From positions 133,864 through 197,863 of the forward strand of contig JAZKIP010000001.1 of the NCBI GenBank assembly GCA_040384805.1: a DNA stretch of 64,000 bases. Direction: 5' to 3'. The position numbers and the translations under genes are program-made. This document shows, piece by piece, positions 30,040 to 57,613 of the stretch (positions are counted from its first letter, which is position 1; each line of letters starts with the position of its first letter). The notes under the pieces are model-generated. The model worked only from the letters and a program-made list of their open reading frames with translations. It searched no databases and was not told where the DNA came from. Source of the stretch: Patescibacteria group bacterium (GTDB lineage Bacteria; Patescibacteriota; Minisyncoccia; Phycocordibacterales; UBA9973).

Positions 30040-30046
30040 CATAAAA

Positions 30047-30781: not shown

Positions 30782-30823
30782 AAAATGATTTTACCATTTT
30801 TCATTTGTTTTGTGTCAAACTCT

Positions 30824-31372: not shown

Positions 31373-31400
31373 GTAATTTGACTATCCTCGATAATAGCCA

Positions 31401-31572: not shown

Positions 31573-31611
31573 TATGGTATATTCTAAATATATTCGATAC
31601 AATACATTTGT

Positions 31612-32100: not shown

Positions 32101-32105
32101 TCACT

Positions 32106-32129
32106 CAAGCATCGTCCAAGTTCGGAGCA
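32106..32129 (+). repeat. Hairpin-repeat family copy (partial, right arm only)
   Basis: CAAGCATCGTCCAAGTTCGGAGCA, immediately after the stop of ORF 31612. Confidence 0.4.
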
Positions 32130-32142
32130 TCATAAGTTATCC

Positions 32143-32772: not shown

Positions 32773-32803
32773 AACTCTATTCTATCATACTCATCCGAAC
32801 ATC

Positions 32804-32830
32804 GTCCCAGGTTCGGAGCAAATTTTTGAG
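32804..32830 (+). repeat. Hairpin-repeat family copy
   Basis: TCCGAACATCGTCCCAGGTTCGGAGCA. Arms CCGAAC/GTTCGG around loop ATCGTCCCAG. Confidence 0.5.
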
Positions 32831-32897
32831 CCATATAATTGAATGGTTATTTTTTCTATTTTAGCGCAAATTCGAACTCGTGATACAATAAATATAT

Positions 32898-33431
32898 ATG
32901 GGAAAATCTAAACCTCAAAAAATAATACACGGTACAGGAATGGAAACCGTTACATTCAGACAGGTAGAGATGTTTACAGAGATGGCAAACAAGGTTTTTG
33001 AAGAGCAAAAAAAAGAAATTTTAGCCAAACTACCTTATGCTGAAGTTCATCATATTGGCAGCACAACTATACCAGGTTCAATAACAAAAGGAGATCTAGA
33101 TGTTAATGTAAGAGTTGAAAAAAAAGATTTCAATACGGCTATTGAATCAATGAAACAAATGTATGATATAAATCAGCCAGAAAACTGGAGAGGAGGTTTT
33201 GCAAGTTTCCAGACTGATACACTAGAAATAGATTTTGGAGCTCAGTTAACTATTATAGATTCAGAAGAAGATGTTTTTTTAAGAAACAAAGCTGTCTTGC
33301 AATCTCATCCTGAACTTGTTGAAAAGCTGAATCAAATTAAATTAAAATATGAAGGTAAATTAATGACTGCATATAGAAAAGAAAAGTATGAGTTTTTTAA
33401 ACAAATTGAATTCCAAAAACAAGACAACTAA
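32898..33431 (+). CDS. GrpB (UPF0157) family nucleotidyltransferase-fold protein
   Basis: HHIGSTTIPGSITKGDLDVNV matches the GrpB signature HVGSTSVPGL.AKPIIDI. Confidence 0.55.
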   Translation: MGKSKPQKIIHGTGMETVTFRQVEMFTEMANKVFEEQKKEILAKLPYAEVHHIGSTTIPGSITKGDLDVNVRVEKKDFNTAIESMKQMYDINQPENWRGGFASFQTDTLEIDFGAQLTIIDSEEDVFLRNKAVLQSHPELVEKLNQIKLKYEGKLMTAYRKEKYEFFKQIEFQKQDN

Positions 33432-33482
33432 CATTTAATTTTCTTTAAGTTTTCTGCTTGTCTATGCTTGTCTAAAAGGGCT

Positions 33483-33510
33483 TTCCGAACATCCTCCCAC
33501 GTTCGGAGCA
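33483..33510 (+). repeat. Hairpin-repeat family copy (consensus-like)
   Basis: TTCCGAACATCCTCCCACGTTCGGAGCA. Confidence 0.5.
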
Positions 33511-33616
33511 AACGAAAACCGCTTTAGAAATAAGGAAATTTTTGTGACCTTAATAGAAGTTTGAACCTAGTGATATAATACACTTAGGTTCTATTATTAA
33601 TTATAAAATAATATTT

Positions 33617-33802
33617 ATGAGAAAACTTAAATGTAAAGATATAAACCCAACTACAACATGCAATTACGAAGCTACTGCTGAGAGTGCTCAAGAGGTAGCT
33701 CTAAAAATGATAGAACATGCAAAAATCCACCATACAGCCGATGTAGAAAATATGACAGACGGAGAAATGATCAAAGCATTTGAAGCCAAAGTACATGAGT
33801 AG
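33617..33802 (+). CDS. DUF1059-like small protein
   Basis: 61 aa. MRKLKCKD...C....E.....HAK.HH pattern. Confidence 0.4.
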   Translation: MRKLKCKDINPTTTCNYEATAESAQEVALKMIEHAKIHHTADVENMTDGEMIKAFEAKVHE

Positions 33803-33835
33803 ATAAAGAGTATTTAATTATTAAATTAAAAAAAC

Positions 33836-34213
33836 ATGAAAACAAATAGTAAAAAATATGTTGATGGTTTTGTTATCCCGATAAAAAAGAAAGATCTAGC
33901 AGCTTACAAGAAGATGGCAGAATGGGGGGCTAAAATATGGAAAAAGAACGGTGCATTGGAGTATTTTGAGTGCGTGGGAGATGATTTAAAAGTACAAAAA
34001 GGCGGGGGACAAGGCTTTGCCAAACTTGCAAAGCTCAAACCAAATGAAACAGTAGTTTTTTCATGGATCGTATACAAATCTAAGGCGCATCGCGATCAGG
34101 TGAACAAGAAAGTAATGAGCGATCCTAGTATGAATAGTTTCGACCCCTCTACGATGCCATTTGATATGAGGCGTTTTGCTACTGGCGGGTTCAAACCAAT
34201 AGCGGAAGCCTAA
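33836..34213 (+). CDS. DUF1428 (YbaA-like) protein, paralog 1
   Basis: KYVDGFVIPIKKKDLAAYKKMAEWGAKIWKKNGALEYFECVGDDL ... VVFSWIVYKSKAHRDQVNKKVMSDP...MPFDMRRFATGGF aligns with E. coli YbaA along its full length. Confidence 0.65.
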   Translation: MKTNSKKYVDGFVIPIKKKDLAAYKKMAEWGAKIWKKNGALEYFECVGDDLKVQKGGGQGFAKLAKLKPNETVVFSWIVYKSKAHRDQVNKKVMSDPSMNSFDPSTMPFDMRRFATGGFKPIAEA

Positions 34214-34232
34214 TAAATTAAACTGTTAAAGT

Positions 34233-34263
34233 TCTTCGAACTTCGTTCCAAATTCGAAGCCAT
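34233..34263 (+). repeat. Hairpin-repeat family copy (diverged)
   Basis: TTCTTCGAACTTCGTTCCAAATTCGAAGCCA. Confidence 0.4.
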
Positions 34264-34490
34264 TACCCAATAGGGATTTGCCTGCTCTCTTTTTACAAGG
34301 TGTAGAATTTTCTTGTCGAAAAAAATTTTAATTTCCAAAATTGACTTATATATAAAACCATGCTACTATATGTTTTATAAATTAGTTCTTTGATAGATGG
34401 TTATTTATTGTTTGTTTTATTAAGTTCCTTCTGTTTCTTTAAAGAATTAGAAGGAGCTTAATAAATCTCTAACAATTAAAAAAACCAAAG

Positions 34491-34850
34491 ATGAAACAAG
34501 CGATTTTAATTATTGCAATTGCAAGCCTTCTGTCTTGTACTTCTGACATCCCCCAAACCACCCCGGAACCTGGGGCTGTTAGCAGCATAAAGCTGCAATT
34601 CGAAGACAATACCGTCGACTATTCGACGGATGAAAGTTTTCGTAAATTTAAGGTCGGCGATAAACTGACCGTTCAGCGGTCAAGTGATGGATATTCATCC
34701 TCTGAATGGGAAGTGTCCTCATCTCCCATTGTAAGGGATACTGTCACATGGGCTCCTTACTTAAAAACCTTCCCAGAAGCAAGCATATACGCGGGGCATA
34801 CATACCGGGAAGAGAGGGCCTACCGTAAGGCCGTAATAGTTAAAAATTAA
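34491..34850 (+). CDS. Putative lipoprotein
   Basis: MKQAILIIAIASLLSCTSD lipobox-type signal. It is preceded by a ~110-nt leader homologous to the one before ORF 36297. Confidence 0.45.
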   Translation: MKQAILIIAIASLLSCTSDIPQTTPEPGAVSSIKLQFEDNTVDYSTDESFRKFKVGDKLTVQRSSDGYSSSEWEVSSSPIVRDTVTWAPYLKTFPEASIYAGHTYREERAYRKAVIVKN

Positions 34851-34911
34851 GACCTGGGTCTAAACTCAAGGCTGATACTTACGTATCAGCCTTTTTTATT
34901 TCTTTAAAATA

Positions 34912-34943
34912 CCATTCGAACATCCTCCTGTATTCGAAGCTAC
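34912..34943 (+). repeat. Hairpin-repeat family copy (diverged), preceded by a terminator hairpin at 34869..34898
   Basis: CCATTCGAACATCCTCCTGTATTCGAAGCTA. Confidence 0.4.
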
Positions 34944-44390: not shown

Positions 44391-44457
44391 TAACCAAAAC
44401 AGCATCCTTTAATACTCCTGAGCATTATGCGCAGGAGTATTTTACAATGAAAGTCTC

Positions 44458-44567
44458 ATTTGTCGATAATATCTATTCACTGTTATAATGACCCAATCAT
44501 GGATTCAAAGTTTATTCACCTCCACACTCATTCCCACTATTCCCTCCTCGACGGATTGTCTAAAATC
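44458..44567 (+). repeat. Left 110-bp direct repeat: a copy of the dnaE promoter plus the first ~27 codons
   Basis: 108/110 nt identical to 57504..57613, including the TTGTCG/TTGTCA -35 box, a 17-nt spacer, the TTATAAT -10 box, and ATGGATTCAAAGTTTATTCACCTCCACACTCATTCCCACTATTCCCTCCTCGACGGATTGTC. Confidence 0.9.
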
Positions 44568-44654
44568 ATCATTAATAAAATTTATCGCCTTTGTACCCAG
44601 AGAAAATTATTGCCTAACTATCGAAAATCCAGCTTATTCTTACGATGCATATGA
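44460..44654 (+). pseudogene. Truncated duplicate of the DnaE N-terminus (first ~35 aa, then unrelated tail)
   Basis: MSIISIHCYNDPIMDSKFIHLHTHSHYSLLDGLSKI is identical to the start of ORF 57506. It diverges after the repeat boundary. Confidence 0.8.
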
Positions 44655-45229: not shown

Positions 45230-45297
45230 TACTTTTAATTATATATAGTCCAGTTTTTAAGTTGCACAACCTCCTTTTAACGACACTAGTATGCAAG

Positions 45298-45911
45298 TTG
45301 TAATACAAGTAATGTTCGTTTCTTGATGACGATTTTCTTATTTTATATAAGCTGAATTTTCTTTGAATAGTAATGGCTTTTGTTATATTTCTTAGATAGT
45401 AGATTGCCCCATTTCCCCATCTTTTTTTATTACTTTCAGCGTCAAAACCAATTATCCCAAACTTTACGTTGTAATCCACGGAGACATAATAGTAGTAATA
45501 ATAGTATTCATGATTGCCAAGGTCTTTCAATTCAAATGTTAGCCTGAAATCTGTTTCGGAATCTCCTTCTTTCTTTTGCGATTTTAAGTATTCCTTAATT
45601 GCTTCAATTTTCTTTCTGCTCTTGTTTTTAGACAAATTTTTGTGATTGTAAATATCACAGACATATCTTGCTGAAACAACCTCTTGTTTATTTTTTTCTT
45701 CTAGAATATTGCGATTTGCGTGATTATTGATATTCGTCGCGATAGTACTATAATTTGCAGGGTTTTTTAATTTTCCTTGTGGCGGGTTATCCTTAAAATA
45801 GTCACGTAACAAGCGAACAACTTCTTTTAAATCTGTAGTGGAATACAGTTCCGTTTTCCGAACGCGGGCTGTAAGTTTCTTATATATATTAGGATCAATG
45901 GTTTTTTTCAT
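45298..45911 (-). pseudogene. Spacer-1 gene fragment, C-terminally truncated at the repeat junction
   Basis: ORF 45201..45911 reads through repeat 1. The tail translated from the repeat, LHTSVVKRRLCN, recurs in every ORF that crosses a repeat on the minus strand. Confidence 0.4.
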
Positions 45912-46827
45912 GAGTTCAAAATAGAAAATTGTGAAGATTTTTGTGAACTTTTTTTAAAAAATGTGTATGTCTCCGTTAACATGATCTATAGAAATGGTGG
46001 GAATTTTACCGCGATGGTAGCTAATAAAAAAACCCACCAGTTTTTTACTAGTGGGCCATCATCGGAAGGAACAGTATTCCGAGATGTAGCCTATAAGGTT
46101 GTTCAAAGCAACCAAGTGGCGTTCCTTTATTATACTGATTGTCAGTATAATAGCAACGTTATCTCTGTCTGTTCCAAATTAAACATGTAAAATCTATGTT
46201 TTATGGAACAGTATACATCCTTAAGATTCTCTGAATTAAGCGACGCAATTCTTGCCGGCTACAAGCATGATTTTGTAATACAAGTTAGTGGTACGCTTAA
46301 ATGCCTCTCAAAACCGGGTAAAGTTTATTCTCCTGATGAGGTTGATATAAGAGTCATTACTTCTTTGAAGAAGAAGGCTAGCCTTCTTCTTATTACTACC
46401 AATGATGGATTATACAAGGGAACGTCGGTGGATTATTGGGAATATTAAGTAAGGTCTAAATTTATTATCCTAAATAAGATTAGTTGCACAACCTCCTTTT
46501 AACGACACTAGTATGCAAGGTAATAATTTTTTTTATTTATAACATCATTGAGACATTGTAGAACAGTCTATTATTCTTCTCTTCACATTACGGAGAGCCA
46601 TCAGTAAAAAAAACCATCAACATTTGTTGATGGTTCACCCGTTCGGTAACAGCTTACCGAGAGATTATTTTACATAGTGGTGACACACTACGTAACGTAA
46701 TGATAATCTATCACTTATAGGTTATTTGTCAACTCTTTGTAGCCTGTTCCGACCATATCTGTAAAAAATATGGTTTATGGAACAATATAAGTTGCACAAC
46801 CTCCTTTTAACGACACTAGTATGCAAG

Positions 46828-47517
46828 GCTTATGATCCAGGAAATAAGTTCTCAATCCCATTTCAGTATTCAGCCTGTGGAATAGGAGTTGACACAAGCA
46901 AAGTCAAAAACTTCAAGAAAAGCTGGTCACTCCTCTTTGATGAAAAATATAAGGGCAAAATCAGTATGTTAGATGATATTCGTTATGGAATGGTTCCGGC
47001 ATTGAAGACCCTTGGCTATTCGCTAAACACAACTAACGAAACCGAATTAAGTCACGTTAGAGATTTATTGTTAAGGCAAAAATCTTTGGTCCGAGCCTAT
47101 ACTAGCGATACATATATTGATCTTCTCAAGTCAGGGGAAGTCTGGATAGCGTATGGATACACTGGGGATATTTATCAGGCGATAAAGGAAAATTCTAATA
47201 TTGTTTATTTTATTCCAGAAGAAGGGTCTGCGCTTGCAGTAGAAAGCATGTGCATCCTGAAAGGAGCTAAAAATAAAAAAACGGCCGAACAATTTATGAA
47301 TTATATTCTGGAACCTCAAGTAGATGCGGATATAGTAAATCACACTCAATATGCAACTCCAAATGATTCGGCTAAACAGTTTATTAACCCCAAAATTCTG
47401 AATGATGAGAATATTTTTCCAGGAAATTCAGTTTTTCTGAAAAGTGAGTATATACGAGATCTTGGTAAAGCAAATCTGCTATATGATAAACTATGGACCG
47501 AAATAAAGACCAAATAA
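46828..47517 (+). pseudogene. Spacer-3: N-terminally truncated PotD/PotF-like polyamine ABC substrate-binding protein fragment
   Basis: C-terminal ~230 aa of a spermidine/putrescine-binding protein fold (…GEVWIAYGYTGDIYQA…NYILEPQVDADIVNHTQYATPN…). It starts directly at the repeat junction with no start codon. Confidence 0.5.
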
Positions 47518-47610
47518 CAGTTTTTCCTTTGACAATTCAATAAACTTGCATCGTATTAGTTGGCGTAGTAAAATCTAATATTATTAGAGATTATAGGACT
47601 TCATGCCAAG

Positions 47611-48495
47611 ATGAATGAAAAATATAAGCTGAGAAATATCGAGCCCGGAATTTATCGCCAGCGAGGTATAGCCGAATTTCGCATTCTTGAATCCTCGATT
47701 TCAAAACGGGTATTTATAAAATACCTCAAGGAACTTTCCCGAAATTTAGGAATGCAACCACATCCAGAATTGCCAGAGCCAGTTATTACTTCAGCTTCTG
47801 GCTATACTTTACAAAAGCATGATGGCCTTGAAGGATTTCTATTCTGGCTAGAATCAGGACTTCACGCTTATTACTGGAAGCGTCCACAGATAATAACTGT
47901 GGACATGCATTCTTGTAAACCACTTATTGAAGAAGCTGTTGAAAATACAAGTAGAAGTAACTTTAGTATTGTTGAGTACAATTATGTAGACCTAGTTTTA
48001 AAAGAAAAGAAAGACAGTCAAAAAGTAAGGACCAGAATATATTCAATATCCCGAAAAGGCCTAATCGCTTCAAAACGCATCAAAAAAGATGAGTATATTT
48101 CTGGGTATTATGGTGAAGTTCACGAAATAAGAAGGACAAAGAAATTTTATAGAGCAGAATTTAAGAATGCAGTTCAATTCGCCGAACATAAATGGCGGGA
48201 ACCTGTCTTAAATAGTCTTGCACAAAACATTAACCATGCGTGTGTACCAAACTGCGGCATTAAAGGTATGTTTGATATAGTTGCCATTAGAAATATTGAA
48301 ATTGGTGAAGAATTATTGTTAGATTATGCAATGACAGAGGATTCCGACTTGAATATCCCTAAAGAAAAATGTTTATGTGGCACAAAAAAGTGCCGTGGAA
48401 AAGCAGTTCCTTATAAAAAGCTACCAAAAGAAGTCAAAGTATTATATAATAATTACATCTCCGAATGGTTAAAAAATAAGTATTATATCAACTAA
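47611..48495 (+). CDS. SET-domain protein (lysine methyltransferase-like), complete gene inside spacer 3
   Basis: NHACVPNC (SET NHxCxPN motif), EELLLDY (ELxxDY motif), and the post-SET Cys cluster CLCGTKKCRG. Confidence 0.65.
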   Translation: MNEKYKLRNIEPGIYRQRGIAEFRILESSISKRVFIKYLKELSRNLGMQPHPELPEPVITSASGYTLQKHDGLEGFLFWLESGLHAYYWKRPQIITVDMHSCKPLIEEAVENTSRSNFSIVEYNYVDLVLKEKKDSQKVRTRIYSISRKGLIASKRIKKDEYISGYYGEVHEIRRTKKFYRAEFKNAVQFAEHKWREPVLNSLAQNINHACVPNCGIKGMFDIVAIRNIEIGEELLLDYAMTEDSDLNIPKEKCLCGTKKCRGKAVPYKKLPKEVKVLYNNYISEWLKNKYYIN

Positions 48496-48796
48496 CATTA
48501 GCCATATCAGTTCCCCTGCATATAATATAGTTTGAAAAAACGCTAAAGTTTTGAAGGCTCAAGCAGCTGTATATTCGCGGGTTATTAAATCTGCAAAATC
48601 GTGAGGTTTAAGCAATACCATGTTAAAATTGAATGGACAAAGCTTTCCCTGATGAAATTTATAGCGTTTGTTCCTATCAAGAACTATTGCTTATTGATAC
48701 AAGATCCAACTCATATATTTGGAGTAATTGCAGGCACAGAGATTATGGAATTTTTAACCGTTGCACAACCTCCTTTTAACGACACTAGTATGCAAG

Positions 48797-49227
48797 TGAT
48801 CCACGCAACGGCCCATGAAAGTCGCTTGAATAGGACATCGATCTTGGAAATGTCAGAACATGGTGCAGACCCATACAGTATCGAAGAATTGATCGCAGAA
48901 ATGGGAGCCTCATACCTCTGCTATCATGCCGGCATTCTTCCGACCCCAATAGGAGACTATTTCGCCTACCTGAACGGCTGGCTCTGGATAAGCTTCGGCA
49001 AGATACTCACCTTGTTGTTACAGCAAGCGTATATGCGCAGCGGGCGGTTGACTACATTCTGGGGTATAAGGAGGCAACCAGCGAGAAAAAAGAGGAAGCG
49101 GAAGTGCCCGAAGCCATGGATGGGGAATAGGAGACATCTATACACAAAGCCCGGACTTTTCCGGGCTTTTTATAATTACTATTTCTTTTTTACTTCGTTA
49201 TATTTCAAACAAAAATTACAAGTATGA
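48797..49227 (+). pseudogene. Spacer-4: 3' fragment of an ArdC-like antirestriction/zincin gene, starting mid-gene at the repeat junction
   Basis: Begins ...IHATAHESRLNRTSILEMSEHGADPYSIEELIAEMGASYLCYHAGI (the HExxH...RLNR ArdC C-terminal metallopeptidase motif). The first 258 nt are 100% identical to 51706..51963 in spacer 6, then the two copies diverge. A terminator hairpin AAGCCCGGACTTTTCCGGGCTTTTT follows. Confidence 0.55.
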
Positions 49228-49256
49228 AAACAAGTATTCTGATTAACAATTTCATT

Positions 49257-49502
49257 CTATTCTTTATCTCTTATTTCTTGTCTTGCTCTTGAAAGATTTT
49301 CAAAGTAGTTCCCCTCAAAAGTTTCAGACACAATTTTCTCTAATGATGATTCAATATCAAAAAGAATTCTTTCTTCTGCTTGATCTTCAAATAGCAACGG
49401 GTGTTCTTTCTGATTGAATTTGGTTAACCATTCGAGCAGAACGAGAGCTTCATTACTACTTAGTTTTAGGAATATGTTTTTATTGTCTTTTATAACTTCC
49501 AT
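49257..49502 (-). CDS. Hypothetical small protein inside spacer 4
   Basis: 81-aa ORF. Confidence 0.35.
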   Translation of the reverse strand: MEVIKDNKNIFLKLSSNEALVLLEWLTKFNQKEHPLLFEDQAEERILFDIESSLEKIVSETFEGNYFENLSRARQEIRDKE

Positions 49503-49738
49503 AATTTATAGACCTCCGTGTTCAAGAACATTTTTTAATTGTACGGGATTAAGTTTCCAGCCGCTAATAAATTGTCCCGAAGGACTAGAGATAACATTAA
49601 GACCAGTATTTGGATTGAGATAGTGTATTACTGATTGACCTCTATATGTTCCATTAATAGCTTGAACACCTGCGGAATTGTTGCACAACCTCCTTTTAAC
49701 GACACTAGTATGCAAGAAATGGCGAGCAAATAAAAATT

Positions 49739-50380
49739 TTGGGCGTAGTGGCTCTTCAAAGAAATAGATCAATAATTAAAAAAATAGATAGAGTAATATC
49801 TACCATTTGGGACATAGCCAAGAAAAATTCTACTCCTAATGAAAATATAGTTATCCTGGAGATTTCAGAAGTTACCGGGATATCTCCAAAAGAAGTTAGT
49901 CTTTGTTTGCACCTCATTTCTGATTATGGTCAGTATGTTACGGGGAGTATAAGCGAGCAGAACACAAGGCTCTACACCGCAATTCAGATAAACGAAGATA
50001 TAAATGTATACTATAGGTATAGCGAATTTCCTGAGGCAAGTTCTCTCCTTGCATTGGATGAAATTAAGAATCAGACGCAACCCCAGGAGTATTTTAAGGA
50101 TGATGAAATTCTGACAATCGGTTGGCAATTGGATAGATTAAGGGAAGAATTTAAAAACGGCATATGTGTATTACAAACCGGACAGGAAATCATCTGGACG
50201 GATAATCAAGAAGATATCGCAGAAATGAAAATTCAGCTTTCCAAATTATCGAAGAAAAACTGGTTTCAACTCTTTATTGGTAAATTATTTTCAAAAGGCA
50301 TTGATAAGCTTTTCTTTGAACCTCTGTTTGAAAAGATTAAGAATTTTGTTGATCCGGCAATAAGTGGATTACTGAATTGA
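49739..50380 (+). CDS. Hypothetical protein inside spacer 5
   Basis: 213-aa ORF starting 23 nt after repeat 5. Confidence 0.4.
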   Translation: MGVVALQRNRSIIKKIDRVISTIWDIAKKNSTPNENIVILEISEVTGISPKEVSLCLHLISDYGQYVTGSISEQNTRLYTAIQINEDINVYYRYSEFPEASSLLALDEIKNQTQPQEYFKDDEILTIGWQLDRLREEFKNGICVLQTGQEIIWTDNQEDIAEMKIQLSKLSKKNWFQLFIGKLFSKGIDKLFFEPLFEKIKNFVDPAISGLLN

Positions 50381-50544
50381 GGCTGCGCTTAATGCGATCC
50401 GTTACAATTTGCTGTTTTCCGTCCAATGATAAACTGTGTTTTCAGTGGCTTCGACAACTTTACATAATTACTTATGCCGGTTCTTCTGCTTCCTGTCATT
50501 TCTTCCCCGCTGCTGAAGAGAATTTATGTAGGGATTAGCAATCT

Positions 50545-50919
50545 TTATTCATCTGAGAATTCTTCAAGATCGAGTATGGCAAGCCCTTTGATTCCGTCTG
50601 GTGTCCTGATCCAGTATACGACAGAACTCGAATCAAAACACACTTCTAGATTGGAAATACATGCGTGTATTCGATAGCTGGTGGCAAGATCAGAGGAGCA
50701 ACGGAGTAAGCCATCTCTAAACTCAAACTTGACGGTATAACCATCCGCTAGGGCTTTTATGACTACCGGTGAGCATAGTTCTAATTCTGAAAAAGCTTTC
50801 ATTAAGAAAGGGTAATTGACTTCCTTCATGCTAGGCTGTGATTTCTCCGGATTATTCCGACCGGAATCTGAAGAGGCCGGCATTTCATACTGGCATTGAA
50901 TAGTAGATTTCTGTTCCAT
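50545..50919 (-). CDS. Hypothetical protein inside spacer 5
   Basis: 124-aa ORF. Confidence 0.35.
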   Translation of the reverse strand: MEQKSTIQCQYEMPASSDSGRNNPEKSQPSMKEVNYPFLMKAFSELELCSPVVIKALADGYTVKFEFRDGLLRCSSDLATSYRIHACISNLEVCFDSSSVVYWIRTPDGIKGLAILDLEEFSDE

Positions 50920-51264
50920 AACATTATTTTTTAGAGTTTGATAATGTCGGAACAGCCTGCGGAGAGGTTGACAGATCAGTCTATAAATGACAGAATGTCA
51001 TTATGTTACGTAGTGGTGGTACACTATGTAAAATAATCTCTCGGTATGCTGTTACCGAAGGGGTGAACCATCAACAAAATGTTGGTGGTTTTTTTCTTTG
51101 CTAATAGTCTATCCCAATAAAAGAAGAAACAAATGGCTGTAATCCACTGTCTTAATGCTGTTATAAATAAAAAAAATTATTACATTACTGTATTAAAAGC
51201 TGCGTTAATGGGAAACCGCTTAAAACCGTTGCACAACCTCCTTTTAACGACACTAGTATGCAAG

Positions 51265-52045
51265 CAAAAACCTCTATCTCACCTGGGACCAAATCAAGGA
51301 GGTCGGCGGATCGGTAAACCGGGGGCAGAAAGGGCATGTCGTTGCCTACTGGAAAATGATCTCGAAAGAACAAACCCGAATGGTACACGAGAAAAATGAA
51401 CTTACTCCGCTTCTCCGGTACTACAAAGTGTTTAACATTTCGCAGTGCAGGGACCTTCCCGATAACCTACTTACTCGGGCGGAGACGTTCCCACAGGGTA
51501 TTGACGCTGGCAGTTCTTCCAAAAAGAAAAATTCGATCTTCTGCGAGGCGATCTACAACAACATGCCTCTGCCCCCAGAGATTAAGTATGAATCCCAGAA
51601 GGCTCTCTATGACCCCGCTCAGGATTACGTCAGCATGCTCAGGAAAAAGAGCTATAAAGAGCCTTCAGGCTACTATGCAGCCCTGTTCCATCAGTTGATC
51701 CACGCAACGGCCCATGAAAGTCGCTTGAATAGGACATCGATCTTGGAAATGTCAGAACATGGTGCAGACCCATACAGTATCGAAGAATTGATCGCAGAAA
51801 TGGGAGCCTCATACCTCTGCTATCATGCCGGCATTCTTCCGACCCCAATAGGAGACTATTTCGCCTACCTGAACGGCTGGCTCTGGATAAGCTTCGGCAA
51901 GATACTCACCTTGTTGTTACAGCAAGCGTATATGCGCAGCGGGCGGTTGACTTTATTTTGGGATATAAAGAGGCAACCAGTAAGAAAAAAGAGGAACGGG
52001 AAGGGTCCGCAGCCATCGAAGGGGAATAACAAATATTTAACATAA
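51265..52045 (+). pseudogene. Spacer-6: N-terminally truncated ArdC-like antirestriction gene (longer fragment than in spacer 4)
   Basis: The frame is open from the repeat junction: KNLYLTWDQIKEVGGSVNRGQKGHVVAYWK (ArdC N-terminal ssDNA-binding domain), then ...LFHQLIHATAHESRLNR.... No start codon. A terminator hairpin AAGCCCGGATACCGGGCTTT follows. Confidence 0.55.
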
Positions 52046-52288
52046 TAAGCCCGGATACCGGGCTTTCTTTAATTAAGTGTTAACTATTAGCCATTATAAC
52101 TTGTTATTAAAAATCTCACTAGTTTTTTGAAATTACCTTAGAAAACCTCTAATTTACTACCTTTGCCATCCATTAAAGGAAATAAACATACAGTAAGATT
52201 ATCCTTAATGTGTATATAGGTCGTTTACAATAAGTTAACAAGTGGTACAATAATGGTAAGCTTTTTGTCACCTTAAATTTATTACATT

Positions 52289-52537
52289 ATGAAAAAGTAT
52301 TTCATACCAACGTTTAGACTTCCTTTCTCTTGGAAAGAGAAATTATTGGATAAGGTTGTTTATCAGCCTTATAAGTATTTTAATGGGGTTTATAAGGAAA
52401 CCGGCATTCTTGTCACAGAGAACCAACTAAATGAGATTGTAGAAATATTGTCTCTCAAATTGGTGTCCCAAAAGATGTCCGCTGAACCTGACATTATTGA
52501 AGTAACCGTCAGAAAATTGGACACGGTAGCAGCCTAG
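52289..52537 (+). CDS. Hypothetical small protein inside spacer 6
   Basis: 82-aa ORF. Confidence 0.3.
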   Translation: MKKYFIPTFRLPFSWKEKLLDKVVYQPYKYFNGVYKETGILVTENQLNEIVEILSLKLVSQKMSAEPDIIEVTVRKLDTVAA

Positions 52538-52571
52538 ACGAATACCATATTTAGGTCCCTTAGGGGACCTT

Positions 52572-53542
52572 TTATTTTATCAGCTTATCGGAGTAAAAAA
52601 TATGATTCATAAATTCACTTATTAACTTAAAATCTGAATTCTTTAATCCGTCAATTAACAGCTTATATATATTCTTTCCTGTAAGGTTTATTCTATGGAT
52701 TACGTTGTTTTTTATGTAAGCAATTTCTTGTAAGTGGTAATCCTCCTTGGTTAAATCATAAAATATCCGGTCTCTATCTTTATTTAGCGCTATAGCTGGT
52801 CCTGAAATTTCGATGTTTGGTTTTTCAGAAAGTATTTTAAGAACTTCCGTAAGACACTGGGCAAAATCAAAAGTTCTGTTGTATAGCTTGTTCAATAACT
52901 CTAACTGATAAAACCAAATTAAATAGCGATTAACTCGCCTAATCTGGATTAATTTGAGATTTCCCTGAAGTGGGTTAAATGAAAACGTAGTTTCAAGTGC
53001 AGTATGAATTGAACTAATGGAATAGTCAATTAATTTACGCGAATCCTTATTTAAAGATTCACTAGCATAAAAAACGATGTCAGTGATAATAGCAAACGCA
53101 TCCGCTTGGTAGTCTGCTTCTTCTACCACTTTCGGAAAATTTCCAATCCCTTGTACCGTTCGCCGATCTAAATTGTGGAACTTATGCAGTGCTTCGTGAA
53201 GCACATAAAGTCGACAAGCTTGATAAAATTTATCATAGTTTAATGGATGATTACCTGTAAGAAATCTGTGATAAATGGATGCGAAGAAATTCACTTTAAT
53301 TTTCCACTGTTTACTGATATCCAAAAAATCTATATCTTGGTCCTCATCTACAAGCCCTTCTACGATGGTATTAGAAAAAAATTGGCTCGTATCATCCAAC
53401 TCAAAATAATTAGAATATACCTCCGCCGGAAATTTCCAATAACTACTATGACAGAATATATCTTCGGGATGAATTTGATATCCGCTTAAAAGGGTTTTAT
53501 ACCACAGCTTCTTATTAAAATCCTGGTTTTTAATAAATTTCT
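52572..53542 (-). pseudogene. Spacer-6: HExxH-containing gene (HEALHKFH), N-terminally truncated at the repeat 7 junction
   Basis: The ORF reaches the repeat with no ATG; the ORF track uses a GTG inside the repeat. Possible ImmA/IrrE-like metallopeptidase, low confidence. Confidence 0.35.
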
Positions 53543-53868
53543 GTTGCACAACCTCCTTTTAACGACACTAGTATGCAAGGATTTTTGAATTGCATTCAAA
53601 TAGCCAAGAAGGTTTTGTATCAGTAGCTTCCTATAGGCTTCTACGAGTAAAACACTATTTCCTCCAGCCGGTAAAGCTGTGTAATATCTTGATTCTAACA
53701 TTCCCCGGTGTAATTAGTTCTGCGACTGATGTGTCTCCATTGTTTTTGTGATAAACAGAATAGGTGCAAAATCAATTTCTACCTTTTCAATTTCGAGCAA
53801 TGTTTGTTCTGTTTGAATATTGTCGTTCATTTTATTATGGGTTGAGTTGTTAATCGATGGCGCCAAAA

Positions 53869-54789
53869 TCAGAAACATTGACGTCCATAGTATTTTTCCC
53901 TTCGCAAAAAAAAATTTTTAAGTTGGTAATATCTTTTGTCTATTAATGACCTGCTTTGACCAGCCCCCGAAATATCATTTTTGGTGACTTTAAACTCATT
54001 ATAAAATGCATCTTTAAATGATTTCGAATTTAAGTCTTCTATTTCTTTGGCTGGATAGTATATCATTACGCATTTGCCTGTTTTAGCATTACCTATATCG
54101 CTGATATGAAGAAAAAGGCCAGCCGCAAACCCAACATGGCCAACATATGAATCAATATCACGTCCACAATTCATAACGTGGTAGGTGGGCTCATTGTTTA
54201 CCTCACTCTGCAGCTGTAGTACGAAGTTAGTACCTTTTATAACAACAGTGCCTTTCCCCCAATTTTTGCCATGGTAGTATTGAACTGTATCACCTATCTC
54301 GTTTTGCCATTTAATGAGAAAGGCAATCCTCCCCAAAATTGCTTCTCCCTCGTTCTCTAAGTTTTCTCTAAACCGGCCGTCCTTGTCATAGAAGCATTCC
54401 CAATAACCGTCGAGTTTTTGTAATTGTAGGATAGAGGATGTCGGAGTGGGTACTTGGCCCCCAGACGAAAAGAATTCACCCCTGTCACATCCATACGCAT
54501 AACGATACATCGTATTTATGAATTTCTTTCGGAAGGTCCGTACACCGTGCTTAGAATGATGAAAAAGAACTGCCAAAGGTTTGTTGGAACGAATGTTAAT
54601 ATTTTTTAGCGCTTTTCCTTTATTGATGGCTTCGTATAATGGATCGTAATTTCGCAAATTGGAGTTTAATATCTTATCAGGATTTTCGATTGCATTTCCT
54701 GTCGTGCTTTTATATTTTTCAATTACTGCCTTTCTAAGTTCGCTTAACTCGTGGTGCTCAAGTGTAATATTCCCAATTTCTGCTGTCAT
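53869..54789 (-). CDS. Hypothetical protein inside spacer 7
   Basis: 306-aa ORF. Confidence 0.4.
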   Translation of the reverse strand: MTAEIGNITLEHHELSELRKAVIEKYKSTTGNAIENPDKILNSNLRNYDPLYEAINKGKALKNINIRSNKPLAVLFHHSKHGVRTFRKKFINTMYRYAYGCDRGEFFSSGGQVPTPTSSILQLQKLDGYWECFYDKDGRFRENLENEGEAILGRIAFLIKWQNEIGDTVQYYHGKNWGKGTVVIKGTNFVLQLQSEVNNEPTYHVMNCGRDIDSYVGHVGFAAGLFLHISDIGNAKTGKCVMIYYPAKEIEDLNSKSFKDAFYNEFKVTKNDISGAGQSRSLIDKRYYQLKNFFLRREKYYGRQCF

Positions 54790-56115
54790 TTTTTACCCAG
54801 TTAAGTAAAGTAAATCAGAATTAAGCCCAAAAATACCATTAAATGCACACAATTAGGTAAAAAACTATAGTTTACTCTATGTAGGTGAAATACAATGGTT
54901 AAAATATTTTATTTTTTTAACTTATTTACCTAAATTTGGAATAGGGATACAGGTTTTCTGGCTCTTAAAAAAAGAGCCTAACGGTCTAACCACCGTTAAG
55001 CCCTGTAATAGCGGTAGTCTCGTTGACAATTATACCGCCTAGATAACAGTCTAACATGTTTTTCTAGTATAAATAACGTTAGACATATAGTATAGGTTTT
55101 TGTCAACTTGATTAGACCGCTAAGAAGCGATCCGATCAGGTTTTTTTATTTATATACACAAAATTAGAAATATACAATATGGTGGCATGGCTACATAAAA
55201 AATTGGGCAGACATCCCCCATAAAGGAAGAATCTGCCCACATGAAATATACCTGCTTTCGCAGACGTACAATTCAACTAGTCATTGCAAATGTATATAAA
55301 GCGGAAGCAGGTTAAAAAATCTTTTTTAACCTGTAATACGCTTTACAATGATAAGCAACATTAACAAGTGTCCTTTCCATGGGCACACCTCCGTTACATC
55401 AGCATCGAGTACAGACGAATTAGTCAGCCTTAAATCGTTGCACAACCTCCTTTTAACGACACTAGTATGCAAGTATTCATTAAGGGGCAGCGCTTCACTA
55501 CGAGGTGTCTGCCCTTTTTGTGTATATATGCGCCATAATATTATATTTGAACGAAAAATAAACAGTCTCAAATAAAAAAAGCCAGACTCGACAATTTATC
55601 TATTGCGGAGAGCTGGCTAAACCGTGTAGTGCTGCTGCTAGACGAACTTGACTTTTTAAGGCATTGAATGATAATATATTAGCAGCGGTTTAGCTTAAAA
55701 TTGATACCGCACAATTCACCGCTCAGGCCACGAACCTGAGCGGTTTTTATTTTTGTCTAAGGATATTGAAATAGGGACGGATAGTAAAGATAAGGGTAAA
55801 CATTTATTCGTTGCACAACCTCCTTTTAACGACACTAGTATGCAAGTATTTGTTTAGTTTAAATAAAAAACCTGACCAGATCGCTATTCGTGCGGTCTAA
55901 TCAGGTTGACAAAAAACCTATAATGTTGCCTAACGTTATTTATACTAGAAAAACATGTTAGACTGTTATCTAGGCGGTATAATTGTCAGCCAGACTACCG
56001 CTAATAGGGTTACGACGGTCTGATCACCGCCGGCCCTATTTTTTTATACTATGTGTATATGATTAAATTTGTTGCACAACCTCCTTTTAACGACACTAGT
56101 ATGCAAGTGCTTGTA

Positions 56116-56451
56116 TTATATATCTTTTTTAGGTTTTTTTCCAATTTTCCCCGAAAGTTGAATGATTTCAAAGGGTGGCATAGCTGCCGCTTTTTCTTTG
56201 GAAAGAATATCAAGATTAATAAAGCAAGATTGGCATAAACTGCTAATAAATACCTTTTCAGTTTTCTTGATGAACAATCCGCTCAAAAGGGTCTGGACTG
56301 TGCGCTTCTCCTTTTGATATAGCGGACCTATGTATAGATTTCTCATAATTGGTTTAAGTCCATAATTCTTACATACGATAACAGCTTTATTCCTATGTCG
56401 CCAATTATTGCTTTCCCAACTGATAATTATAGTCGAAGTGATGTTATTCAT
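56116..56451 (-). CDS. cas2: Cas2-like protein (divergent)
   Basis: ~111 aa. N-terminal IIISWESNNWRHRNKAVIVCKNYGLK aligns with the Cas2 pattern YDI...RR.Kv.k.L..yG (YD replaced by WE). Overlaps cas1 by 8 nt, as is typical for cas1-cas2 operons. Confidence 0.5.
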   Translation of the reverse strand: MNNITSTIIISWESNNWRHRNKAVIVCKNYGLKPIMRNLYIGPLYQKEKRTVQTLLSGLFIKKTEKVFISSLCQSCFINLDILSKEKAAAMPPFEIIQLSGKIGKKPKKDI

Positions 56452-57457
56452 TTTTTAAATTAAAAAGCTCTGTAGCATTGAATGCTTTTAGTGTCTTTTC
56501 TTTTCCTTGAAAGAATCGCGCAAGCGATCGCACTTGATCTTCCATGATCTGCTTGAGCGTATACTGTTTGCCTTTCCATATCACTTTTTCCTCCCAACGA
56601 TTTAAAATGGCTTCCGTGATGATAGCTATTCCTTCGGGCGAAAGTTTATATTTACCCTTGCCGATTGATTCAAACAATGACCGTTTACTCATTTTCTTTT
56701 CAATTATGAGCTGAAAGAGCACAGAGTCAACCACCGGCACCCGAAATTCTTCCACCAAATCGCAGACAAGCGCCGGTTTGCCGTACCGTTCTGTATGACA
56801 AAGACCGAAATAAGGATCAAGACCTACATAGAGGCATAATCGTTCCATTTCAGTATACAAAAAACCGTAACCATAATTAATAATATTGTTAAATTTATCC
56901 CCTCGTTTTCTGTCACGACCAGCGAAACGAATCAGTTTCCGAAGAGCAAAGAAATACGTGTTAGCAATTTGTCCTTCAATCCCCATGAGCTGATCTCGAT
57001 TCTTAGGATGATTCGGAATTGTATCTACTGTTTTAAGTATCGCTTCGCATTGTAAGATCTCTGTAGAAAAATCCTTTTTATATTTATAACCCAAATATCG
57101 CAAATGCAATATTTGATTAGTGCATTTACCTTTTATAAAAATCTTGGCAATGCTAAAAGATTCAGGAGATGTGGAAACTTCAAGCTGAGCGCGACGCAAA
57201 CTTGCAATTCCTTTTGGGGCACTTGAAAAGATTCTGCCGATAGGTATAGCGCGAAAATCCATATATACAATATCAACTTCGTGTTTAAGGGCGAGCTCAA
57301 CAGCAGCAGTAGTAAGAGAAGCGGGCCGGAGAATACGTATCTTTTCAACTCGTATCGCCGGATATTCCTTCTTCTCCTTCATCTTTGGGAACGTGAGAAC
57401 AAAACGTTCTCCACTTGCACGAATACTTGTACCATATTCATTGACGATTATATCCAT
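56444..57457 (-). CDS. cas1: CRISPR-associated endonuclease Cas1
   Basis: Hallmark C-terminal motifs NNIINYGYGFLYTEMERLCLYVGLDPYFGLCHTERYGKPALVCDLVEEFRVPVVDSVLFQLI (Cas1 NYGY...GLDP..G.LH...R.sL..DL.EeFRp..vD). N-terminal beta-rich domain. 337 aa. Confidence 0.9.
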   Translation of the reverse strand: MDIIVNEYGTSIRASGERFVLTFPKMKEKKEYPAIRVEKIRILRPASLTTAAVELALKHEVDIVYMDFRAIPIGRIFSSAPKGIASLRRAQLEVSTSPESFSIAKIFIKGKCTNQILHLRYLGYKYKKDFSTEILQCEAILKTVDTIPNHPKNRDQLMGIEGQIANTYFFALRKLIRFAGRDRKRGDKFNNIINYGYGFLYTEMERLCLYVGLDPYFGLCHTERYGKPALVCDLVEEFRVPVVDSVLFQLIIEKKMSKRSLFESIGKGKYKLSPEGIAIITEAILNRWEEKVIWKGKQYTLKQIMEDQVRSLARFFQGKEKTLKAFNATELFNLKNE

Positions 57458-57503
57458 ATATTTTAGGGATAAATAATAAACACATTATATTACAGAACGT
57501 CCA

Positions 57504-57613
57504 ATTTGTCAATAATATCTATTCACTGTTATAATGACCCAATCATGGATTCAAAGTTTATTCACCTCCACACTCATTCCCACTATTCCCTCCTCGACGG
57601 ATTGTCCAAAATC
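57504..57613 (+). repeat. Right 110-bp direct repeat: the native dnaE promoter and 5' coding region
   Basis: See 44458..44567. -35 TTGTCA and -10 TTATAAT lie upstream of the dnaE ATG at 57545. Confidence 0.9.

Follow-up and report, generated by a model that had tools for sequence, protein, structure and literature searches.

A CRISPR-derived Cas1–Cas2 locus without an effector that likely stores long fragments of foreign DNA

The window, a 64-kb stretch of DNA from a Patescibacteria group bacterium, contains what is likely a CRISPR-derived Cas1–Cas2 locus without an effector, in which long double-stranded DNA fragments (0.2–2.3 kb) are stored rather than ~35-nt spacers; that Cas1–Cas2 inserted these fragments is inferred. 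The array consists of ten repeats and nine spacers of 224–2278 nt and directly adjoins a cas2-like gene and cas1 (56116–57457, minus strand), from which it is separated by 8 nt (Table 1). This architecture is shown. No CRISPR effector gene was found in the 64-kb window and, because an effector is absent, a role of this locus in immunity is not shown. We found no published description of a long-spacer Cas1–Cas2 array without an effector in the literature searched. The initial annotation concerned related pairs of spacers, but the surrounding locus is more striking than the pairs themselves. Our results suggest that in this bacterium, which has a tiny genome, a CRISPR integrase is used for archiving long foreign DNA.

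More than 180 homologues of cas1 were identified. Residues E161, H221 and D233/E236, which we take to be the catalytic positions of Cas1, were invariant in a 32-sequence alignment. The cas2-like protein had no Pfam match. When a profile of 17 orthologues was compared with the PDB, the five best matches were all Cas2 proteins (7f84, E 0.009; 4qr0, 3exc, 2i8e and 2ivy). We conclude that the 111-aa gene is a divergent cas2, although this assignment rests on marginal E-values (0.009–0.17). A single-sequence structure model of the protein failed, yielding only a low-confidence prediction (pLDDT 32). At every related locus the gene is found in this position, and its family comprises 55 clusters at 50% identity among 1.84 billion representatives. 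By our own reading of the alignment, the protein is without the usual N-terminal Asp motif.

The ten repeats of the window are identical (0 mismatches in 370 nt) and are not palindromic; no further copies of the 37-nt repeat were found elsewhere in the window. A leader motif, AAAAAAG..TATAA.ACA..., is common to the window and its two nearest relatives (L001 and L005), while the rest of the clade has a different yet conserved motif (..CCTTAATTTNCTGGCT) ahead of the first repeat. The sole degenerate repeat that we found is the cas-distal one of L001, which we cite for polarity.

Table 1. Coordinates of the cas–array locus and its contents within the window
Feature	Coordinates	Strand	Remarks
dnaE segment, distal copy	44449–44567	+	dnaE promoter and first ~27 codons; direct repeat with 57495–57613
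Array	45261–56107	−	ten direct 37-nt repeats; cas-strand repeat CTTGCATACTAGTGTCGTTAAAAGGAGGTTGTGCAAC; starts (plus strand) 45261, 46483, 46791, 48760, 49680, 51228, 53543, 55437, 55810, 56071
Spacer 1 (1185 nt)	45298–46482		204-codon minus-strand open frame runs into distal repeat; two small plus-strand ORFs
Spacer 2 (271 nt)	46520–46790		non-coding; back-to-back terminator hairpins; inverted homologue of 50912–51183 (spacer 5)
Spacer 3 (1932 nt)	46828–48759		PotD fragment and SET-domain gene
PotD-type solute-binding gene, 5'-truncated (spacer 3)	46828–47517	+	begins at repeat junction
SET-domain gene, complete (spacer 3)	47611–48495	+	
Spacer 4 (883 nt)	48797–49679		ArdC 3' fragment, terminator, 81-aa ORF, 5'-truncated minus-strand ORF into repeat
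ArdC 3' fragment (spacer 4)	48797–~49130	+	begins at junction
Spacer 5 (1511 nt)	49717–51227		220-codon frame open from left junction; 124-aa minus-strand ORF; 50912–51183 common with spacer 2
Spacer 6 (2278 nt)	51265–53542		truncated ArdC; 82-aa ORF; 322-codon minus-strand frame open to right junction
ArdC without first ~64 codons (spacer 6)	51266–52045	+	open from junction; frameshifted; Pfam MPTase-PolyVal
Spacer 7 (1857 nt)	53580–55436		306-aa ORF (53869–54789, minus strand); 55006–55162 common with spacer 9
Spacer 8 (336 nt)	55474–55809		no long ORF; one strong terminator hairpin
Spacer 9 (224 nt), cas-proximal	55847–56070		55849–56006 is inverted homologue of 55006–55162
Leader-like region	56108–56157	−	8 nt between cas2 stop and first repeat, plus 3' end of cas2
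cas2-like, 111 aa	56116–56451	−	divergent; start overlaps cas1 end
cas1, 337 aa	56444–57457	−	Pfam PF01867, E 7.8e-64, profile positions 2–280 of 283
dnaE segment, proximal copy	57495–57613	+	5' end of functional dnaE; 38 nt from cas1 start

Conservation of this architecture across the Cas1 clade is also shown. It adjoins Cas1 homologues (39–72% identity) in MAGs of Patescibacteria and DPANN and in a few others; where sequence extends past cas2, almost every locus of the clade has the layout cas1, cas2-like gene and then a same-strand repeat 2–38 nt downstream. The 51 spacers measured were 140–4242 nt long (median about 1.5 kb) and none was of classical length; the same was true of four additional two-repeat metagenome loci, with spacers of 871–3995 nt. 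Arrays contain 1–10 repeats and, as many cas-linked loci have a single repeat, insertion must be rare. In a neighbour-joining tree, Cas1 proteins of the long-spacer and single-repeat loci were monophyletic and nested among Cas1 proteins of classical arrays (37-nt repeat, 34–41-nt spacers), including a Cas12f-type locus. In the outgroup Cas1 loci (29–38% identity) the repeats, also 37 nt long, are related at their ends, and spacers of full-length arrays measure 34–41 nt; one encodes canonical Cas2 and a Cas12f1-like effector, and another canonical Cas2 and Cas4.

Array content turns over. The syntenic relative L005 (dnaE–cas1–cas2–array–RNase HII) has no spacer in common with the window, and one MAG contains near-identical cas modules with different spacers. 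In L032 a cas1 fragment (residues 94–334) and cas2 sit between repeats, as a spacer. Metagenomic occurrences of the repeat family were mostly solitary, with cas1–cas2 upstream in only 5 of 42, and several solitary repeats retain the leader motif beside housekeeping genes. As most are solitary, we conclude that the repeat can persist, and possibly act, with no cas genes beside it.

At 48 of 102 spacer boundaries the repeat is entered by an open frame of 90 codons or more, compared with 60.5 ± 4.6 for random cuts of the flanking genome and 5.1 ± 2.3 for shuffled spacers; spacer boundaries interrupt genes at nearly the rate of random cuts. Pfam domains truncated at junctions included Pkinase (157–259 of 263), GntR (12–64 of 64) and FAD_binding_3 (1–220 of 349), together with an internal TPR fragment and an RHS C-terminal tip. 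The PotD fragment of spacer 3 matched SBP_bac_8 at positions 82–276 of 279 and corresponds to residues 128–354 of 355-aa homologues, while the ArdC fragment of spacer 4 corresponds to residues 208–312 of P0121 (tblastn). ORFs were present on both strands, and some spacers carry apparently intact housekeeping genes (dnaX in L008). We conclude from these data that the spacers are pieces of genes, in either orientation, whose truncation points coincide exactly with the repeat junctions.

The foreign affinities of this DNA are likewise shown. Spacer GC content is mostly below that of the own genome (0.32–0.39 for window spacers versus 0.451). For both the ArdC and the PotD fragment of the window, the nearest genes are Bacteroidota ones (Chitinophagaceae-like). 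The closest relative of the ArdC fragment, at 83% amino acid and nucleotide identity, is an integrative element; the contig that carries it (JAWVHH010000607, L058) comes from the same sample and was binned as Bacteroidota. The match covers 811 nt and starts at the first base of spacer 6. For the PotD fragment, the top full-length homologues were 67–71% identical, the only named one being from Ferruginibacter, and it looks like an ordinary Chitinophagaceae chromosomal gene. No actual donor was identified, as the closest relatives of the window fragments are only 67–83% identical. Spacer 1 had no Pfam, PHROG or NCBIfam match. Given these affinities, the proposal that the DNA came from invaders of this cell is not shown. 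Nor is the plasmid origin inferred earlier from ArdC, which marks conjugative elements in general; among its plasmid hits, 1748 of 3109 were conjugative.

The initial annotation had claimed that three pairs of spacers carry related fragments, two of them inverted. Blastn within the window and a repeat search confirmed this: the three pairs share diverged sequence at E 1e-48 to 1e-160, far above chance, and no match was low-complexity, the alternative that had been named. The direct ArdC pair (48797–49178 in spacer 4 and 51696–52075 in spacer 6) is 92.4% identical over 384 columns (E 5e-160). Identity is 100% over the first 257 nt from the repeat/spacer-4 junction (258 had been claimed) and ~85% over the next ~125 nt; the terminator hairpins are separate in the two copies, as had been described, and their loops differ. 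Spacer 6 itself had been given as 51265–52045, which is wrong. Almost all of spacer 2 (46520–46784, 265 of 271 nt) matches 51183–50912 of spacer 5 at 79.5% over 278 columns (E 2e-56); the claimed inversion was right, but the match is longer and more diverged than the ~100 bp at ~90% first reported. The inverted match between spacers 7 and 9 held at 88.2% over 161 columns (55006–55162 and 56006–55849, E 2e-48). In each pair, one of the two spacers is homologous from within 0–2 nt of a repeat junction onward, and this junction is invariably its cas-distal one.

Since paired spacers differ by 8–20% while the ten repeats are identical, their divergence is most likely older than capture. Simple tandem duplication, which had been named as refuting capture, and unequal crossover are excluded because the flanks of the common segments differ and two pairs are inverted. 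The claim that the ArdC copies were acquired independently must be qualified. Both have the same frameshift relative to full-length ArdC which, with the 257-nt identical block, makes them not fully independent and indicates gene conversion between copies or a mosaic source. The central idea of the initial annotation, namely that an adaptation-like process working with very long units has repeatedly captured related foreign DNA irrespective of orientation, is supported by the adjoining cas1 and cas2, clade-wide long spacers, genes cut at junctions in both orientations, and identical repeats beside diverged spacers.

We propose that the integrase descended from a type V-F-like adaptation module. 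Loss of Cas4 and strong divergence of Cas2 would have left it "ruler-less", the substrate no longer being measured or trimmed. Cas1–Cas2 would take any DNA fragment and join it by both ends to the repeat nearest the leader, and gap repair would then duplicate the 37-bp repeat, the same chemistry as in normal spacer integration and casposon integration. Any available DNA would serve as a source: chromosomes of other bacteria and mobile elements, exemplified here by the Bacteroidota-like potD and ardC, and occasionally a cas locus, either the organism's own or that of a sibling. Each member of the three related pairs would have been captured separately, its orientation being random, from source elements that are related without being identical, with 257 nt of the ArdC pair homogenised by later gene conversion. 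That insertion is performed by Cas1–Cas2, and that it is polar, at the cas2 end, are both inferred; there is no biochemical evidence for any Cas1–Cas2 integrating kb-long DNA into a repeat.

Alternatively, duplications, inversions and deletions within the array could have generated the related spacers from one another, with divergence in place afterwards. The identical block and common frameshift of spacers 4 and 6 do point to sequence exchange or a very recent common ancestor, and Cas1-mediated re-integration of array-derived DNA would give the junction-anchored homology of the shorter copy seen in all three pairs. However, the other segments are only 79–88% identical, and in-place divergence of 12–20% should have reached the repeats unless these were constantly homogenised. 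Moreover, the segment flanks are unrelated between members, inverted pairs cannot arise by unequal crossover between direct repeats, and the external homologue L058 is about equally distant from spacer 4 (86.7%) and spacer 6 (82.9%). We consider this explanation very unlikely. An assembly artefact, in which a short-read assembler joined unrelated contigs via the common 37-nt sequence, is all but excluded. The window is from a metagenome-assembled genome and Logan unitigs of the same run break inside repeats, but the fragments are truly repeat-flanked: in the independent Logan assembly of run SRR26324625, spacer 3 has repeat sequence at both ends and spacer 7 at one end. About 20 further assemblies, from different projects, also show the same architecture, one of them a single-chromosome assembly of 876 kb (L016). 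Only the spacer order in this short-read MAG could be wrong.

Cas1-independent recombination of cassettes, site-specific or homologous, is a further possibility. Here the repeat would be a site like attC or dif, one-repeat circles would insert by Campbell-type recombination, and cas1–cas2 would be a bystander or one of several users. Solitary repeats without adjacent cas genes favour this reading, as do repeats upstream of cas1 in L011 and L032, and a sharply bordered 1504-bp cas1–cas2–repeat module of which one MAG has several copies. So does a 119-nt direct duplication of the dnaE 5' segment flanking the entire cas–array locus on both sides, as expected from single-crossover insertion of a circle; no equivalent was found at 40 related loci. 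Against it, Pfam detected no tyrosine, serine or DDE recombinase among the scanned window-array ORFs and sampled spacer ORFs of related loci, and cas1 and the cas2-like gene are the only genes at every cas-anchored locus. Repeat-bearing circles should bring intact genes, yet boundaries cut genes almost like random cuts. Spacer 3 is not a circular permutation, because the part of PotD that it lacks, the N-terminus, does not occur anywhere in the window. None of 2.9 million viral/MGE contigs had the repeat pattern, and the non-palindromic repeats are unlike attC or dif sites. This rival is thus unlikely, and we retain capture by Cas1–Cas2 as the preferred reading.

Stand-alone CRISPR adaptation modules without effector genes are known (Hudaiberdiev et al. 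2017, PMC5704561). Like CRISPR adaptation modules generally, the loci studied here combine Cas1 with conserved E/H/D at the presumed catalytic positions, a Cas2-fold partner, a conserved leader beside the first repeat, direct 37-nt repeats that are identical to one another and agree at their ends with those of classical relatives, and foreign inserts in both orientations, several from related sources. They differ in that inserts are 140–4242 nt and non-uniform in length rather than ~30–40 nt, and hold whole genes, gene fragments and terminators. Their Cas2 has diverged beyond recognition by the Pfam model and, by our reading, lacks the Asp motif, Cas4 and effector are absent, and arrays are tiny. 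Type V-F (Cas12f/Cas14) systems of DPANN archaea provide the nearest classical relative of this Cas1 in the tree and share the host kind, small-genome episymbionts. In the type V-F-like locus L041, an array of 37-nt repeats is accompanied by cas1, canonical cas2 and a gene for a Cas12f1-like protein containing a TNB domain; the studied locus has neither its effector nor the 35–40-nt spacers of classical loci.

Casposons are Cas1-solo transposons (Krupovic et al. 2014, PMC4046053) in which a Cas1-family integrase likewise inserts kb-sized DNA with duplication of the target sequence. However, a casposon is a defined unit that inserts itself, has terminal inverted repeats and encodes a family-B polymerase, whereas the inserts described here are heterogeneous, have no common ends and accumulate at one repeat beside cas1–cas2, and no polB gene is present. 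Integrons (IntI, attI, attC cassettes) resemble it as chromosomal platforms with one integrase at the array end, kb-sized inserts and a recurring site, new DNA apparently entering at the integrase-proximal end. IntI is an unrelated tyrosine recombinase, attC sites are imperfect palindromes rather than identical repeats, and integron cassettes are complete promoterless ORFs in one orientation, whereas the inserts of the studied arrays are random fragments lying both ways.

The 37-nt repeat was present in ten copies with zero mismatches among them, and no further copies were found elsewhere in the 64 kb window. On the plus strand the repeat reads GTTGCACAACCTCCTTTTAACGACACTAGTATGCAAG; its ends show merely 5 bp of terminal complementarity. 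The repeat criterion of a CRISPR array was satisfied, i.e. near-identical direct repeats in the 23-55 nt range, in one orientation and with a conserved leader adjacent. The criterion of short (about 25-70 nt), near-uniform spacers was failed, as spacers 1 to 9 measured 1185, 271, 1932, 883, 1511, 2278, 1857, 336 and 224 nt (range 224-2278 nt). A motif directly upstream of the first repeat was conserved across the Cas1 clade, and the sole degenerate repeat was the cas-distal one in L001, a related locus fetched for comparison; both observations suggest the usual leader-proximal polarity. We found 17 terminator-like hairpins on both strands of the array, about twice the number in shuffled sequence (8.2 +/- 2.6), which argues against one long pre-crRNA. 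This evidence is indirect. A search of the array for non-coding RNA with Rfam returned nothing above the gathering score.

Features of the locus and its surroundings (window coordinates)
Feature	Position	Strand	Remarks
Repeat-spacer array	45261-56107		spacers numbered from the low coordinate; spacer 9 is cas-proximal
cas2-like ORF	56116-56451	minus	111 aa; overlaps the end of cas1; ends 8 bases beyond the last repeat
cas1	56444-57457	minus	337 aa; Pfam PF01867, E 7.8e-64
Shared segment, spacer 4	48797-49178		ArdC; 92.4% identical to spacer 6 segment over 384 columns
Shared segment, spacer 6	51696-52075		ArdC
Shared segment, spacer 2	46520-46784		almost the whole spacer; inverted, 79.5%-identical copy of spacer 5 segment
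Shared segment, spacer 5	50912-51183		
Shared segment, spacer 7	55006-55162		
Shared segment, spacer 9	55849-56006		inverted, 88%-identical copy of spacer 7 segment
dnaE duplication, distal copy	44449-44567		dnaE promoter region and first ~27 codons
dnaE duplication, cas-side copy	57495-57613		direct copy
tRNA-Asn	29968-30040		
Second repeat family, in a low-GC island	30811-34940		the island adjoins tRNA-Asn

The 337-aa ORF is unambiguously Cas1. Residues E161, H221 and D233/E236, which we take to be the catalytic positions, were invariant in 32 homologues. The adjacent 111-aa ORF had no Pfam match, and its single-sequence structure model was unusable (pLDDT 32). The five best PDB matches to a profile of 17 orthologues were all Cas2 structures, with marginal E-values (0.009-0.17); on these marginal matches only, we treat the protein as a probable divergent Cas2. 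Effector or interference genes (Cas3/Cascade, Cas9, Cas10, Cas12, Cas13) were not detected by Pfam among the ORFs scanned in the window, nor were effector genes present in the gene tables of L001 and a second related locus, L003. The window ORFs scanned also lacked cas4. Genes neighbouring the locus encode SecA, DnaE, RNase HII, aminopeptidase N, PurH, glutamate dehydrogenase (GDH) and GyrA.

The inserts are largely pieces of genes cut at the repeat. Spacer 3 starts, at its first base, inside a gene for a PotD-type solute-binding protein and carries residues 128-354 of 355-aa homologues; tblastn with full-length homologues located the N-terminal part nowhere in the window. As only these residues were found, entry of spacer 3 as a circular permutation, in which a repeat-bearing circle leaves gene halves at both ends, was rejected. 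Spacer 6 starts inside ardC at about codon 65 and spacer 4 at about codon 208 of another copy of this gene; other junctions in the window likewise cut long open frames. Across the clade, an open frame of at least 90 codons ran into the repeat at 48 of 102 spacer boundaries, compared with 60.5 +/- 4.6 for random cuts of flanking genomes and 5.1 +/- 2.3 for shuffled spacers. In related loci, junctions truncated several Pfam domains: a kinase was retained only from profile position 157 onward and a GntR domain from position 12, a FAD-binding domain stopped at 220 of 349, and only an internal part of a TPR domain and the tip of an RHS toxin remained. Insert genes lie on both strands, and the GC content of most spacers is below that of their genomes. 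No usable annotation of the remaining spacer ORFs was obtained from PHROGs or NCBIfam. NCBI annotates the truncated PotD and ArdC pieces as proteins, and gene callers treat such fragments as ordinary genes.

The first 5 nt at the cas-proximal end of 51 spacers showed a weak bias resembling AAATT (A in 23/51 at position 3, T in 24/51 at position 5; background 27-28%). This bias was not significant after correction for multiple positions; it may reflect a cut-site or PAM-like preference. The idea that the repeat provides captured genes with a ribosome-binding site or start codon was rejected, since its AGGAGG also occurs, as AAGGA, in the repeats of classical relatives and junction-open frames occupy all three phases. 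Junction-truncated C-terminal tips of polymorphic-toxin-like genes were seen at 49257-49679 of the window and at 13669-15968 of L001, where the toxin gene has an RHS repeat. These tips are followed by a small ORF or an LRR ORF, possibly encoding an immunity protein. An apparently full-length dnaX (DNA polymerase III gamma/tau) lies inside a 3477-nt spacer of the related locus L008 (13380-14879); it could be a captured housekeeping gene or an essential gene situated between two repeats.

The initial annotation, made from sequence alone, had claimed that three pairs of spacers are related and that they reflect independent capture from related elements. All three pairs were real, with E-values of 1e-48 to 1e-160. 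In the ArdC pair, the first 257 nt from the spacer 4 junction were identical; the remainder was about 85% identical and the terminator loops differed. The two non-coding shared segments are made up mostly of terminator hairpins arranged back to back, in which pairing was kept despite substitutions. The sequence on either side of each shared segment was unrelated between pair members, and paired spacers differed by 8-20% while the repeats were identical. Moreover, an outside ArdC homologue was about equally distant from both window copies (86.7% and 82.9%). The most likely explanation for the identical repeats, differing flanks, two inverted pairs and equidistant outside homologue is independent capture from related elements, as had been claimed. 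The two ArdC copies are not fully independent, because they have in common both the 257-nt identical block and one frameshift. These features, with one edge of the block exactly at the end of homology by the repeat, are expected from gene conversion between array-resident copies.

A collinear source element containing ardC, the SET gene and the inverted segments, which the initial annotation had suggested seeking, was not found; contig JAWVHH010000607 (L058) and two other ArdC-matching sequences (L059, L060) matched the ArdC region only. Comparison of the spacers with plasmids and phages likewise gave no nucleotide match in PLSDB or INPHARED, and IMG/VR yielded one distant ArdC only. A small gene family common to spacers 1, 2 and 5 was considered and dropped, as the 81-aa and 124-aa ORFs showed no significant similarity (BLASTP E-value 0.21); spacers 1 and 2 were linked by a 30-nt match only. 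An independent assembly (Logan, run SRR26324625) recovered spacer 3 flanked by repeat sequence on both sides and spacer 7 flanked on one side. Thus, the repeat-fragment junctions are not a product of the MAG assembler.

The best match to the ArdC fragment was 83% identical at both the protein and the DNA level, the DNA alignment spanning 811 nt from the first base of spacer 6 onward. This match sits between serine-recombinase genes on JAWVHH010000607, which belongs to a MAG named Bacteroidota bacterium, and the same ArdC protein is encoded on a contig of the Logan run that also yielded window spacers. Seven of the nine other named ArdC matches were from Bacteroidota. Homologues of ArdC were present on 3109 PLSDB plasmids, 1748 of them conjugative. 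The top cluster of PotD matches was 67-71% identical, its only named member was Ferruginibacter, and apart from the window no Patescibacteria homologue was among the matches. By these ArdC and PotD matches, at least two inserts resemble DNA of Chitinophagaceae type, in one case that of a mobile element and in the other that of a chromosome. A true donor (>95% identity) was not found. Exact-protein matches to the SET protein and to a 306-aa ORF were not found outside contigs of the same sample.

More than 180 Cas1 homologues were found, and the named ones were nearly all from Patescibacteria. We compared 50 loci from species-representative genomes and, in addition, the surroundings of the two closest homologues. 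Among clade loci whose sequence extends past cas2, nearly all have cas1 and the cas2-like gene followed, 2-38 nt on, by a 37-nt repeat of the same family on the same strand. The 51 spacers in loci with at least two repeats measured 140-4242 nt (median near 1.5 kb), none being shorter than 140 nt. One such locus (L016), with eight repeats and spacers of 140-4007 nt, lies in an 876-kb single-chromosome assembly. In the syntenic relative L005, the gene order is SecA-dnaE-cas1-cas2-array-RNase HII-GDH and Cas1 is 71% identical; its one 2983-nt spacer was unrelated to the window spacers. Outgroup Cas1 proteins (29-38% identity) were from Methanospirillum, Methanocalculus, a Methanosarcinales MAG, Iainarchaeum, Saprospiraceae and Bacteroidales. 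Their arrays contain 37-nt repeats with terminal TTGCA...TGCAAC motifs common to the clade, and the full-length arrays have 34-41-nt spacers. The nearest annotated classical loci encode canonical Cas2 with a Cas12f1-like protein (L041) or with Cas4 (L042). In a neighbour-joining tree, Cas1 of the long-spacer and single-repeat loci formed one clade nested among classical Cas1 proteins. The simplest history would be a single switch: effector and Cas4 were lost from a V-F-like adaptation module, its Cas2 diverged until the Pfam model no longer recognised it, and inserts became long.

One MAG contained three to four sharply bounded copies of a 1504-bp unit, which starts ~100 nt ahead of cas1 and ends exactly where the first repeat ends; these copies were 99.7-99.9% identical, with differing inserts. 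Across L006, L011, L029, L024 and L007 (~9899-11402), copies of the unit were 97-99.9% identical with unrelated flanks, and three of them belong to one MAG binned as FCPU426/'proteobacterium'. No target-site duplications were seen around these units; the cas module appears to be mobile or repeatedly copied. On the contig of L029, another locus (L032, 9969-11123) lies some 12 kb downstream of a complete cas1-cas2-repeat module. Here a repeat is directly followed by cas1 codons 94-334, cas2, a leader and further array, as would be expected had a large part of a sister locus been captured as a spacer.

Some results fit less neatly. Querying JGI metagenomes with the conserved repeat half returned 42 stretches from about 33 distinct loci. 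Four contained two repeats, 871-3995 nt apart, the remainder were single, and no classical arrays were present in this set. Only 5 of the 42 stretches had cas1-cas2 upstream of the repeat. Some solitary repeats keep the leader motif yet sit among core genes, e.g. downstream of rpsO, flanked by an NYN-domain gene and pnp (JGI contig L065, 6430-6466), or after a subtilase gene, adjoining efp (L098, 789-825 and 4821-4857). Such solitary repeats may be scars left where cas genes were lost, sites that are acted on in trans, or units that have moved. The repeat pattern was absent from IMG/VR.

The locus has features in common with several known systems. An integron would also collect gene-containing inserts, but Pfam detected no recombinase domain, of the IntI tyrosine type or otherwise, in the array-flanking ORFs scanned. 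Moreover, integron cassettes are complete ORFs in a single orientation, each closed by an imperfectly palindromic attC site of variable sequence, whereas the window inserts are junction-cut fragments on both strands with identical repeats. A casposon pairs Cas1 with a family-B DNA polymerase (PolB) in a single defined element that has terminal inverted repeats and a target-site duplication; the locus does not qualify, as no PolB was found in the window or in the loci examined and the inserts lack common ends. Type V-F systems carry a Cas12f/Cas14 effector with cas1, cas2 and, in some cases, cas4; among the outgroup loci, L041 has the effector and L042 has cas4, neither of which is in the window. 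With respect to a CRISPR immune system, the parts are those of CRISPR adaptation, but short uniform spacers and a linked effector are missing. The full-text literature searched described stand-alone adaptation modules and casposons; no description of Cas1-Cas2 arrays with kilobase inserts was found.

That Cas1-Cas2 performs the insertions has not been shown; we infer it from strict co-occurrence, from the pattern of repeat duplication and from the chemistry known for this family. If Cas1-Cas2 does make these arrays, control of spacer length is not intrinsic to the CRISPR integrase, and a natural lineage has turned Cas1-Cas2 into a capture device for gene-sized DNA. Such a device would bridge casposons, in which Cas1 moves kb-sized DNA, and CRISPR adaptation, in which Cas1-Cas2 stores short tags. 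It would also constitute a concrete, testable route of horizontal gene gain in Patescibacteria and DPANN, lineages whose gene acquisition and host interaction are an open question, and for uncultured episymbionts the inserts could be used to read off the identity of hosts or neighbours. An integrase writing long DNA into a defined 37-bp site would be of interest for genome engineering and for DNA recording. These loci are probably overlooked by CRISPR finders in which spacers must be short and regular.

A bolder reading, toward which we lean slightly less than away, is that a ruler-less Cas1-Cas2 provides genome-reduced episymbionts (Patescibacteria and DPANN) with homology-independent DNA capture. 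The array would then be a chromosomal safe harbour that archives kb-sized DNA of hosts, neighbours and mobile elements and occasionally delivers usable genes. Its contents would record organisms fed on or lived with, here Chitinophagaceae-like Bacteroidota.

The surroundings of the locus showed further features. The 5' end of dnaE is duplicated in direct orientation, with one copy on either side of the locus (96% identical over 119 nt; core ~98%), a type of flanking duplication that was absent from related loci. The arrangement resembles a single-crossover insertion of circular DNA carrying the locus and a dnaE 5' end. The GC content of cas1-cas2 is 0.38, compared with 0.45 for the genome and 0.37 in the syntenic relative L005. 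An unexplained similarity links 44563-44643, just after the distal dnaE fragment, with 48640-48720 at the cas-proximal end of spacer 3; nucleotide identity is about 65-70%, and tblastx gave 59% over 27 aa (E 2.5e-6). The low-GC island contains a second, different repeat family: a ~29-48-nt element with a 7-bp stem, TCCGAAC...GTTCGGA, occurs there in six imperfect copies that are 66-100% identical. Intervals of 577-1393 nt, containing small ORFs, separate these elements, and 297-nt and 115-nt direct repeats are also present. The elements may form an array resembling cassettes or may be conserved terminators.
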